Part shown: positions 8,353-10,597 of the stretch, one piece after another
How positions within the stretch are numbered: position 1 is the first letter of the stretch
Layout of the letters: each line of letters begins with the position of its first letter
Program-made: the position numbers and the translations under genes
DNA from: a virus
Taxonomy: Duplodnaviria; Heunggongvirae; Uroviricota; Caudoviricetes
Reading direction: 5' to 3' (one strand)
IMG/VR virus record: IMGVR_UViG_2713896897_000016
Span: 1-29,363 of that record
Length of the DNA stretch: 29,363 bases
Notes under the pieces: model-generated
What the model was told of the DNA's origin: nothing
Database searches by the model: none
The model's input: the letters and a program-made list of their open reading frames with translations, nothing else

Positions 8353-8603
8353 TAGCCGCTTTCCTTCTCTCGTCTCATTAGTTCAGTATACGCAGAACGA
8401 TCGCCATTTTTGGCGCGCTTATACAGAGCGCCGCGTAGTTCAGCCTCGCCTTTTGCTCGCCCCTTTCTGATTGCCTCGCGATATTCAGTGAGACGTTCCG
8501 GACTCGTTTTCAGTTCGTTGATATCCATATCCAGCACATCGGCAATTTGTTGCTCGCTCATGCGGCGCGCGGCGAGCGCCTGCACCTTTTGGAAATCAAT
8601 CAT
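8352..8603 (-). CDS. small HTH-like protein of the packaging region (hypothetical)
   Basis: Internal Met of ORF 8352..8741 chosen (MIDFQKVQALAARRMSEQQIADVL...) because the upstream gene ends at 8596; stop overlaps small terminase start. Confidence 0.35.
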   Translation of the reverse strand: MIDFQKVQALAARRMSEQQIADVLDMDINELKTSPERLTEYREAIRKGRAKGEAELRGALYKRAKNGDRSAYTELMRREKESG

Positions 8604-9996
8604 TGTGGCTGCCTTGCCTGAACGCACTAAGAACGTCCTCTGATCTCCCAATCGGGTTACCATCGGGGAACGGTAACTCGAACTCGAATCGAATTGCACT
8701 CTCCAGTTCGTGGTGCGGTTGCTGCTGTGTCGGTACTGCATGTACCTGATATGACGAATCTGAACAAACGTGGGACTTAATCGTTAATCCGTATTTGTCG
8801 CCGATTTTTTTAATATCTTCATCGGCATGAAATTTTTGATAGAACCAGTTTCCCTTTCGATACTTTGCGGAAAAATTATTCTCATCAAAAAAATAAATTT
8901 GCCCGGTCCTGGTTGCAGCCTGCATGCAGCGCATCATGTCCTGAATAAATTTGAGGCGACGCCCGGAGAAGAACAACTCCCCATCTGGCTTACATAGAGA
9001 TGCGATAAAGGTCAGCACAGCGTGCTCTGCTTGCAGGCTGTCAACGCTATTGAGTACGCTGTCACAAATAACGTAATCAAAGGGGCCGTGTTTTCTAACG
9101 GATTCGCACATTGCTGTGATCATCCGGTGGACTGCGCTGGAATCAATCACGTTCCCGGCACCGCGACGGCGGTATAGTTCTACATCCAGCAGGTTATATC
9201 CCTGCTTGCGAAGTAGGCGCGCATAGTCTCCCTGGCCTGAACCAAAATCGATACCTCTAAGCTTTTTGCTGTCCGGTTGTTTGAGTAGCCATGGAATGGT
9301 GAGGTTTTCGTATAGCCTGGATTTGATGCTCTTCACGCCAGTTGTACGTAAACGCATCATCTGTGCGTAGGTCTGGACGTAAGTTTTTTTATCCAGGTGT
9401 TCGTAGTTGAATACGCCATAGCTGCGATCGAGATATTTTTTGTATTTCTCCCGCATAGAATCAGGTATGACGTAAACCGTCAGCGGTACAGCCAAGTGTT
9501 TGCATGCCAGCACATATTGCGCACAGTGAATAACTTCTCCCGACTCAGTGGCAACACATCCACCCCACGATCCATACTTCAGGATCATGTCACTTATTTC
9601 CCTGCGAACGTATGCCAGCCGGGAGCGATAGTTTCCGGTGATACGGTCTGCAGTAACTTGAATAAAACCGTGGTGGCCCTTCAATCCAGAAATAAAACAG
9701 TGCTCATCACCGGAATCCATATCGGTGCCGTTGTGGAGCTGGTTGAACCGGATTTCATCATAAACCGTGGTATCGCGTGACAGTTCGAATACGGCAGCTT
9801 TTTCAGTGCCAAGCAGGCGAAGCGCCTTTGTACGTTGGTGGCCAGCCACCAGCAGATTGCCGCGAACGATGAGCGGCTTTACCAGGCCAAGCTCTCGAAT
9901 ACTCTCTGCCAGTTTCTCCAGATCCTCACCATCAATGTGACGCGGGTTATAGTCAGCGCCACGCAGTCCAGCGATGTCAAAATCAAGCGTGAGCAT
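8596..9996 (-). CDS. ParB-like N-terminal domain fused to a class I SAM-dependent methyltransferase domain
   Basis: N-terminal ParB/sulfiredoxin-type motif (DYNPRHIDGEDLEKLAESIRELGLVKPLIVRGNLLVAGHQR); C-terminal methyltransferase motifs I (LRGIDFGSGQGDYA), post-I (LLDVE), II (FDYVICDSV) and III (CKPDGELFF). Confidence 0.65.
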   Translation of the reverse strand: MLTLDFDIAGLRGADYNPRHIDGEDLEKLAESIRELGLVKPLIVRGNLLVAGHQRTKALRLLGTEKAAVFELSRDTTVYDEIRFNQLHNGTDMDSGDEHCFISGLKGHHGFIQVTADRITGNYRSRLAYVRREISDMILKYGSWGGCVATESGEVIHCAQYVLACKHLAVPLTVYVIPDSMREKYKKYLDRSYGVFNYEHLDKKTYVQTYAQMMRLRTTGVKSIKSRLYENLTIPWLLKQPDSKKLRGIDFGSGQGDYARLLRKQGYNLLDVELYRRRGAGNVIDSSAVHRMITAMCESVRKHGPFDYVICDSVLNSVDSLQAEHAVLTFIASLCKPDGELFFSGRRLKFIQDMMRCMQAATRTGQIYFFDENNFSAKYRKGNWFYQKFHADEDIKKIGDKYGLTIKSHVCSDSSYQVHAVPTQQQPHHELESAIRFEFELPFPDGNPIGRSEDVLSAFRQGSHND

Positions 9997-10597
9997 CGTT
10001 ACCTCCGGTGAGATAAGCAACGAATCCGAAATGTGAACCCGATTTTTCTACAAACGCGTCAAACGCCCCCATCAGGCTATTCGATTCATCATCTGTCATT
10101 GGCACGCGTTTACGATTGAACGTTAACCAGTTCATATCGTCGGCCCCTGTCTGCCCCTCATCTTTATCAAACGCTATCGGAATACCGCCGTCTGCCAGCA
10201 GTTCGTCAAGCTCAGGTTCATTGAATCCGAGCAGTGAGAGATCATAACCCTCGCCCAGTAATTCGCTCAGCTCAATACGTAGTAGGCCTTCGTCCCAACC
10301 AGCGTTAAGCGGGAGGCGATTGTCAACCATTCGGTAGGCGCGTTTTTGCTGGTCCGTTAATCCCGTCAGGGTAATTGTTGGCACCTGCTCAAGCGTAAGC
10401 AATTCAGCGGCAGCGCACCGCCCATGCCCTGCGATAATTACACCAGCCTCATCGATTAGAACCGGATTGGTCCAGCCGTATTCCTTAATGCTGGCGGCGA
10501 TCTGTTCTATTTGCTCCTCAGAATGTGTCCGCGTATTTCTTTCGTACTCATTCAGTTCGGAAATGTTTTTAAAAATAACTGCTATCTGTTCAGCCAT
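9983..10597 (-). CDS. ParB-like nuclease domain protein
   Basis: Internal Met start MAEQIAVIFKNISELNEYERNTRTHSEEQIEQIAASIKEYGWTNPVLIDEAGVIIAGHGR, a ParB N-terminal-domain signature; immediately upstream of the ParB-methyltransferase gene. Confidence 0.65.
   Translation of the reverse strand: MAEQIAVIFKNISELNEYERNTRTHSEEQIEQIAASIKEYGWTNPVLIDEAGVIIAGHGRCAAAELLTLEQVPTITLTGLTDQQKRAYRMVDNRLPLNAGWDEGLLRIELSELLGEGYDLSLLGFNEPELDELLADGGIPIAFDKDEGQTGADDMNWLTFNRKRVPMTDDESNSLMGAFDAFVEKSGSHFGFVAYLTGGNDAHA

Follow-up and report, generated by a model that had tools for sequence, protein, structure and literature searches.

A ParB-domain protein and a ParB-methyltransferase fusion as a paired, terminase-linked gene module of a lambdoid prophage, preceded by a candidate cis-regulatory RNA

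Among the genes of phages and plasmids that await explanation, those for orphan ParB-fold proteins are some of the most frequent, and to our knowledge a thymine dioxygenase is the sole DNA-modifying enzyme that such a protein has been shown to activate. Here, a computational analysis is presented of two adjacent ParB-domain genes in the IMG/VR virus record IMGVR_UViG_2713896897_000016 (Caudoviricetes; positions 1 to 29,363), the whole stretch of 29,363 nucleotides (nt) being referred to as the window. The upstream gene encodes ParB1, a ParB_N protein of 204 amino acids (aa) that starts with MAEQIAVIF at an ATG codon (10597..9983, minus strand). The downstream gene encodes a 466-aa protein that starts with MLTLDFDI, likewise at an ATG codon (9996..8596, minus strand), and joins a ParB N-terminal (ParB-N) domain to a class I S-adenosylmethionine (SAM)-dependent methyltransferase; it is called the fusion below.

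In the 5mYOX176/ParB176 system, the nucleotide-binding and the C-terminal domains of a phage ParB-like protein are both needed for the action of the thymine dioxygenase on double-stranded DNA, and this requirement is cognate-specific (O'Toole et al., 2026; PMC13229309). The present locus resembles that system in features for which the evidence here is genomic: a separate, small phage ParB-like protein combines a nucleotide-binding with a C-terminal domain and has no obvious DNA-binding domain, is encoded beside a putatively DNA-modifying enzyme for which it appears to be specific, and is often found near terminase genes. In contrast, the enzyme is here a SAM methyltransferase with two ParB folds rather than an Fe(II)/2-oxoglutarate dioxygenase, and the dependence on ParB1 that we infer for it draws on gene linkage and on co-variation of the ParB1 tail.

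Further points of comparison are provided by ParB fusions to N6/N4 DNA methyltransferases (phrog_498, PDLC03229 and Bacillus cereus Bce_0392), whose ParB module is homologous to that of the proteins described here (9.4e-14 and 2.5e-6 for the N-terminal domain of the fusion) and which, like them, occur in prophages, often beside terminase genes. The two classes differ in their catalytic domains, that of the fusion belonging to another methyltransferase family and being without a DPPY-type motif, and in the deployment of the ParB module, which is here found both as a separate protein and in fused form, together with an additional, degenerate ParB fold. Canonical ParB/Spo0J clamps share the N-terminal fold, and their Box I (YxPR) and Box II (GxxR) motifs can be aligned with those of the present proteins. 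Unlike in those clamps, there is no helix-turn-helix (HTH), parS or recognisable dimerisation domain, no ParA among the scanned open reading frames (ORFs) of the window, and no score that reaches the NCBIfam cutoff.

The fusion itself belongs to a family already on record. Kaljevic et al. (2025; PMC12704722) listed the combination of a ParB-CTPase domain with Methyltransf_23 (PF13489) among the fusions enriched in phages and prophages, and built a pocket R-to-A mutant of a phage 'Methyltransferase23' construct, which may or may not belong to PHROG 5475. The window protein matches PHROG 5475, annotated as of unknown function, from end to end (4.1e-171), its residues 1-461 aligning with positions 1-454 of the 458 in the profile; it shares the Pfam architecture of the Kaljevic class, and no difference sets it apart from the PHROG family itself. 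The architecture is accordingly not new, both architecture and family being already catalogued, and the fusion is a member of a known, uncharacterised family. A 98% identical protein is held at NCBI as 'methyltransferase domain-containing protein [Escherichia coli]', and homologues of equal length number more than 900, from Enterobacteriaceae, Serratia, Pantoea, Bradyrhizobium, Xanthobacteraceae, one Bacteroides phage and one Brochothrix phage. New, in that they go unmentioned in the papers and database entries consulted, are the predicted second ParB fold, the apparently obligate ParB1 partner, the joint exchange of tail and enzyme, the near-private methyltransferase clade and the putative leader RNA.

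The pairing of the two genes is the rule in this family. In a survey of 76 IMG/VR loci, 66 of them usable, in which the ORF ending at the fusion start was taken, a ParB1 homologue lay directly upstream of the fusion in 61 of the 66, and the genes overlapped or were separated by at most 30 nt in 57. Judged by this linkage, ParB1 and the fusion form an obligate, translationally coupled pair. The earlier note on this DNA had spoken of tandem ParB-domain genes, of which the adjacency stands and the independence does not, since the genes are coupled and ParB1 carries a partner-specific tail; its term 'nuclease domain' is a historical domain name, and nothing in the analysis points to nuclease activity. 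The gene downstream of the fusion often encodes a small terminase subunit, and in most of 52 loci a large terminase or portal gene, drawn from several unrelated PHROG families, is the largest ORF in the 3 kb that follow.

ParB1 consists of a conserved head and a variable tail. The head (residues 1-136; 10190..10597, minus strand) comprises a ParB/Srx N-terminal domain with a nucleoside triphosphate (NTP) pocket and a linker, and is recognised by phrog_620 (1e-56) and by Pfam ParB_N (3.7e-6; 27.3 bits, cutoff 26.3). Two profiles of ParB-DNA-methyltransferases, phrog_498 (3.4e-46) and the PADLOC MTase_II profile PDLC03229 (4e-34), likewise match the head with their N-terminal part. Because the PADLOC match is limited to the ParB part of this Type II methyltransferase profile, the module is not a known defence system. 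Residues N21/R23, G57-H-x-R60 and D92-N93 are kept in 50 ParB1 partner proteins, the pocket motifs being at least 90% conserved. The remaining 68 residues (137-204; 9986..10189, minus strand), termed tail A, behave differently from the head: used alone as a query, they retrieve the C-termini of the upstream ParB1 protein in 50 of the 66 ParB-methyltransferase loci.

That the tail goes with the enzyme is best illustrated by a prophage of E. coli STEC384 (NZ_CP091029.1), the closest E. coli relative of the region, which shares with it the lysis genes, the 83-aa ORF and the terminase small subunit (TerS). Behind the same leader, its slot (5301-7058 of L001) encodes a ParB/Srx protein of 259 aa and, next to it, a TET-associated glycosyltransferase of 287 aa (TAGT; Pfam PF20691, 8.1e-37); no TET/JBP dioxygenase was found in the annotated 12-kb STEC384 stretch. 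ParB1 and the STEC384 ParB protein are 75% identical over residues 1-136 and unrelated beyond, and the STEC384 tail of about 123 aa is found again, with 63-71% identity, in three further loci, a TAGT gene adjoining it in two. The slot therefore holds exchangeable cassettes of a ParB adaptor and an enzyme of a DNA-modification-associated family. ParB1 tail type thus appears, across these sequences, to follow enzyme type, which is the pattern expected if the tail docks the enzyme. The leader-ParB1-fusion cassette also occurs in 48-kb E. coli plasmid-like elements and in Yersinia phages, where other genes intervene before the gene for the terminase large subunit (TerL).

As a separate observation, several genes of this kind are stacked ahead of TerL in the 48.5-kb, phage-like plasmid NZ_CP009073.1 of E. 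coli ATCC 25922 (locus L156, 544-7546), in the order MT-A70 methyltransferase, leader, ParB1, ParB-methyltransferase, a 239-aa protein without a Pfam match, a third ParB_N protein (196 aa) and a 183-aa protein. The terminase-upstream region resembles, in this plasmid, a hotspot for ParB-linked cassettes.

The fusion is composed of three domains. At its N-terminus, the ParB-N domain (residues 1-95; 9712..9996, minus strand) matches Pfam ParB_N (PF02195) over residues 8-67 with 28.7 bits (cutoff 26.3) and has intact NTP-pocket motifs: Y16, P18, R19, G52, H53, Q54, R55, E81 and N85, which include a Box I-like YxPR and a Box II GxxR, are invariant in 48 sequences. A profile of the fusion family aligns with the CTP-binding domain of Bacillus subtilis Spo0J (6sdk; 2.8e-8), YNPR being placed against YQPRK and AGHQR against AGERR. 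Between the two Pfam-annotated domains, residues of about 100-190 (9427..9699, minus strand) are predicted to form a second ParB/Srx fold, as the order of secondary-structure elements in the model of this region repeats that of the ParB-N domain. Because GxxR is missing (IHCAQY stands in its place), this middle domain is regarded as a degenerate copy; hhalign detected no sequence similarity between it and the first domain, and their kinship is visible at the level of the fold only. In the AlphaFold2 model of the full-length fusion, built on 48 homologues, the predicted local distance difference test score is 93.1 and the predicted template modelling score 0.90, values on the strength of which the three domains are predicted to form one rigid body.

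At the C-terminus, residues 241-466 (8599..9276, minus strand) make up a class I SAM-dependent methyltransferase of the Methyltransf_23 type (PF13489; residues 242-374, 6.5e-11, 42.7 bits against a cutoff of 27) with a Rossmann-like methyltransferase fold. D250, G252, G254, E273 and D312, which represent motif I and the acidic residues of strands 2 and 4, are invariant in the 48 sequences. The earlier note had identified a ParB-domain protein followed by a ParB-N/class I methyltransferase fusion at 8596-10597, had read the motifs IDFGSGQG, FDYVICDSV and CKPDGELFF in the latter, and had considered itself refuted should the C-terminal domain be assigned to a non-methyltransferase fold. Pfam ParB_N in both proteins and Methyltransf_23 in the fusion agree with this description, all three motifs are present in the translation, and the fold is that of a methyltransferase family; the count of one ParB domain in the fusion is right for ParB-N and is to be revised for the region behind it, where the model adds a second ParB/Srx fold.

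When the methyltransferase domain alone was searched against 1.84 billion representatives, just 398 proteins were retrieved. Among the best 150 of these, 105 are at least 430 aa long and carry the domain at about residues 240-460, and most of the shorter ones are fragment-like. Since the search with the domain alone returned almost solely the same architecture or its fragments, the catalytic domain would seem to be a clade almost private to the ParB-ParB'-methyltransferase architecture. Its SAM motifs are intact, and by sequence and predicted structure it is akin to methyltransferases of small molecules and RNA and unlike those of DNA.

Immediately ahead of the start codon of ParB1 lies a conserved leader of 105 nt (10615..10719, minus strand), whose proposed structure comprises four helices: P1, which encloses the hairpin P2, then P3, and then the hairpin P4. 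It is about 90% identical at the nucleotide level to 72 E. coli records, 68 of them on plasmids of about 48 kb, and to three Yersinia phages; the genes that flank these matches share about 58% protein identity and are less conserved than the leader. The roughly 100 nt upstream of ParB1 are the sole nucleotide-level conservation in 8300-10800. A megablast of this interval against phages matched the leader (about 100 bp) alone, so the region has no close phage relative at the DNA level.

The leader alignment shows compensatory changes, and RNAalifold, applied to six sequences, predicted the four helices, with 7 pairs showing compensation. A covariance model (R1) scored 90-123 bits on the sense strand only, at enterobacterial loci and always directly upstream of a ParB1-type gene, with either type of cassette. 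In ten distinct leader sequences, 94.8% of cells were paired against 28-45% in slid controls, and none of 500 shuffles reached the covariation score; this alignment had been fitted to the covariance model, which biases it towards the structure. Occurrences comprise the window (10615-10719, minus strand), L001 (6954-7058), L002 (4254-4359) and the loci L005, L006, L011, L012, L080, L083, L088 and L122, all in enterobacterial prophages or plasmid-like elements. With Rfam 15, no family matched the leader when the window was scanned at gathering scores, nor when 10500-10900 was scanned at E<=1. A scan of genome contigs with an invariant 17-mer of the leader returned 65 loci, nearly all in unrelated GC-rich genomes and of the order estimated for chance (about 70); of the 17-mer loci searched with the covariance model, that of Superficieibacter electus was the sole match.

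Invariant G-U pairs and strand asymmetry argue for an RNA over a DNA palindrome, and the leader is, on the strength of its covariation, a candidate new cis-regulatory RNA. In the single-sequence fold, its conserved segment GCCGUG pairs with CAUGGC at the ParB1 start codon. Because this pairing is kept in relatives by one-sided changes only, translational control by the leader is put forward as a hypothesis and not as a result.

The module sits in a recognisable genomic setting. The window contains an integrase, a cI-like repressor, O and P, NinG, DUF1133, lysis genes, the ParB module, terminase, portal and capsid, and is as a whole a lambdoid prophage, with the ParB module between its lysis and terminase genes, as had been noted earlier. 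Upstream, on the minus strand, are a holin (12076..11756), a CHAP/TIGR02594 endolysin (11728..11243) and a lipoprotein (11042..10794). Downstream, on the same strand, an 83-aa ORF (8603..8352) overlaps the stop codon of the fusion and the start codon of TerS and is followed by TerS (8352..7363) and TerL (7225..5735), the latter two identified jointly by Pfam Terminase_2 and Terminase_6C (Terminase_2, 3.7e-14) and phrog_51. The 83-aa ORF has a partial match to phrog_309 (terminase small subunit, 2.2e-14), and an ORF of 83 aa likewise stands immediately ahead of TerS in the STEC384 prophage, whose ParB cassette is a different one; the ORF is part of the packaging module and lies outside the ParB cassette. 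In the ORF list, both ParB-domain genes had been extended to upstream TTG codons; since homologues of the fusion (n=47) have their first residues at MLxLxYDI, its true start is taken to be the ATG at 9996.

Successive genes overlap by 14 nt (ParB1 and fusion), 8 nt (fusion and 83-aa ORF) and 1 nt (83-aa ORF and TerS), and therefore form one translationally coupled operon with the terminase. Separate transcription of the module was considered and is unsupported, since a scan for sigma-70 consensus promoters and terminators was negative for promoters from the lysis genes to ParB1 and for both signals within the module. A strong terminator-like hairpin was observed elsewhere in the presumed late operon, at the end of the holin gene and ahead of the endolysin gene (11747-11766, minus strand; 8 pairs, 6 of them G-C, then TTTTT).

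Several other features of the window were recorded in passing. A 298-aa ORF between the DUF1133 gene and the holin gene (12558-13454, minus strand) is moron-like in appearance, with a GC content of 0.41-0.42 against about 0.50-0.55 in most of the window; its sole match is phrog_1040, 'peptidase HslV family' (1e-7), with none in Pfam or PADLOC, and the same gene is present in the STEC384 prophage. In the early region, a 630-aa ORF without a Pfam or PADLOC match lies between the immunity genes and a Sipho_Gp157 gene (24313-26205, plus strand). A homing-endonuclease-like gene with NUMOD4 and HNH_3 domains is located in the nin region upstream of NinG (15159-15743, minus strand).

With regard to function, we favour DNA-directed modification of phage DNA before packaging, by the enzyme together with ParB1 as a probably NTP-gated adaptor, and assign this reading a probability of about 0.45. 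ParB1 and the ParB-ParB'-methyltransferase would form a two-protein, late-expressed modification module. ParB1 would serve as adaptor or activator, its N-terminal NTP-pocket ParB domain engaging nucleic acid or dimerising and its short C-terminal tail docking the cognate enzyme; within the enzyme, the NTP-binding ParB domain would pack on the degenerate ParB fold in the manner of an intramolecular ParB N-domain dimer, joined to a SAM methyltransferase that appears catalytically intact. Made from the late operon shared with the terminase, the complex would target phage DNA after its replication, shortly before packaging or in the course of it, and add a methyl mark, which may shield the DNA in the following host or license its packaging, and the structured RNA leader ahead of ParB1 may tune expression. 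The sequences themselves establish the make-up of the domains, the intact motifs, the pairing, the correlation of tail with partner, the place in the operon and the covariation of the leader. Physical contact between ParB1 and the enzyme, NTP gating, a DNA substrate and the biological role are the parts of this scheme that we infer. DNA modification is nevertheless the most economical explanation, because of the obligate adaptor-enzyme pair, the co-expression with terminase, the DNA-methyltransferase-type head of ParB1 and the TET-associated alternative partner; it would agree with the proposal of Iyer et al. (2013), in the form cited in PMC8256090, that modification machinery is guided to DNA by ParB proteins in the course of packaging. 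A role in anti-restriction or packaging through DNA modification, as the earlier note had suggested, is, on indirect evidence from context, the most likely one.

Considerable evidence weighs on the other side, its main thrust being that the catalytic domain is unlike known DNA methyltransferases and that no DNA-binding domain is detectable. The motif (D/N/S)PP(Y/F/W/H) is found in none of 48 family sequences, the window protein and its 47 homologues, in keeping with the absence of DPPY/NPPY reported before; the fusion has no match to the Pfam N6_N4, Dam, MT-A70 or C5 (PF00145) families; no HTH or other DNA-binding domain was detected in ParB1 or the fusion by Pfam, NCBIfam or PDB profile searches; and the 29-kb window revealed no other DNA-hypermodification gene from which an unusual acceptor could come. 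ParB function in the 5mYOX system was not abolished by mutations of the NTP pocket (PMC13229309), so NTP gating is uncertain. These points lend weight to a serious rival, which we consider possible rather than likely, namely that the acceptor is something other than DNA, such as RNA (a tRNA base or an RNA end), a host or virion protein, a nucleotide or a small molecule, with the ParB folds acting as an ATP/CTP switch or a substrate-binding module. The structural neighbours of the methyltransferase domain are toxoflavin N-methyltransferase, Trm9, METTL6, ChlM, cap N7 methyltransferases, GNMT, NNMT and the protein lysine methyltransferase PKMT2, and no DNA methyltransferase is among the structural matches listed, which justifies the caution over the substrate voiced in the earlier note. 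Its best PDB sequence matches are UbiG O-methyltransferases (1.7e-7); the PDB profile search returned just Spo0J/ParB/Noc N-domains and UbiG-type methyltransferases, with SerK and designed proteins more weakly, and NCBIfam gave nothing above cutoff, with weak UbiG and BioC matches. Binding of ATP or GTP is reported for ParB-CTPase fusions to many enzymes that do not act on DNA, and binding of ATP for ParB fusions to SAM methyltransferases, which may or may not belong to PHROG 5475 (Kaljevic et al., 2025; PMC12704722). A non-DNA acceptor sits less easily with the ParB1 head, which is specifically the module of ParB-DNA-methyltransferase fusions, with an alternative enzyme in the same slot from a family named for its association with TET DNA modification, and with the adjacency to terminase genes, which is conserved across terminase types and fits a DNA-directed role.

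It is improbable, in our view, that the module is in essence a packaging accessory, in which the ParB domains would be NTP-regulated nickases or DNA-end binders that aid the terminase at pac or cos, methylation being secondary. Sternberg and Coulby are said to have found in 1990 that cleavage at the pac site of phage P1 is under adenine-methylation control. Translational coupling to TerS and TerL and the conserved place directly upstream of terminase also speak for such a role, and a ParB-methyltransferase fusion of a B. cereus prophage nicks DNA non-specifically and adjoins TerS (PMC3592412, PMC5512222). Yet the cassette moves independently of any one terminase type, because in the plasmid-like elements and Yersinia phages it stands ahead of other genes before TerL, and it is dispensable for this particular packaging machine, because the STEC384 prophage, with closely related packaging genes, carries the glycosyltransferase cassette instead. 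Quite improbable, too, is a regulator of gene expression comparable to KorB, VirB, HerB or IbrB, with ParB1 as a DNA clamp that alters phage or host transcription and the methyltransferase as its effector: ParB-like proteins of mobile elements do regulate transcription or reprogram hosts, as exemplified by KorB (cited in PMC13229309) and HerB (PMC13370423), but the lack of a detectable HTH or other DNA-binding domain speaks against it, expression from a late operon beside lysis and packaging genes would come too late for reprogramming, and the invariant catalytic methyltransferase would be left unexplained. Canonical ParABS partition, by which the prophage would be kept as a plasmid, might be suggested by the ParB_N domain and by relatives on E. 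coli plasmids of about 48 kb. It was rejected as scarcely credible on TIGR00180 (parB_part) scores of 32.9 and 23.0 bits against a cutoff of 58.45, on the absence of ParA among the scanned window ORFs and on the presence of an integrase in an integrating lambdoid layout; the missing HTH and recognisable dimerisation domain, with no ParB C-terminal match in Pfam or NCBIfam and with PDB matches to ParB proteins confined to the N-domain, and the position of the genes in the late operon, point the same way.

The favoured reading of DNA modification before packaging can be extended into a bolder and more doubtful proposal, in which the three ParB folds, one of ParB1 and two of the enzyme, would act as an NTP-gated loader, the non-canonical methyltransferase would write an as yet unassigned methyl mark on DNA at packaging, and the new cis-RNA would sequester the ParB1 start codon. 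The mark could possibly be at a guanine N7-type position, which is suggested only by the cap N7 neighbours, or at a non-base position.

The locus provides a second system of this type that is genetically clean, in a lambdoid prophage of the E. coli type: an obligate adaptor-enzyme pair, together with a natural swap experiment in which leader and adaptor head stay the same and tail and enzyme differ. Should DNA be the acceptor, the family would define a DNA methyltransferase class of its own and possibly a new mark on phage DNA that matters for evading restriction; otherwise, a ParB NTP switch would be seen to control a different chemistry. Should the loader proposal hold, a ParB adaptor with a swappable tail and enzyme would constitute a plug-in system for phage DNA modification.

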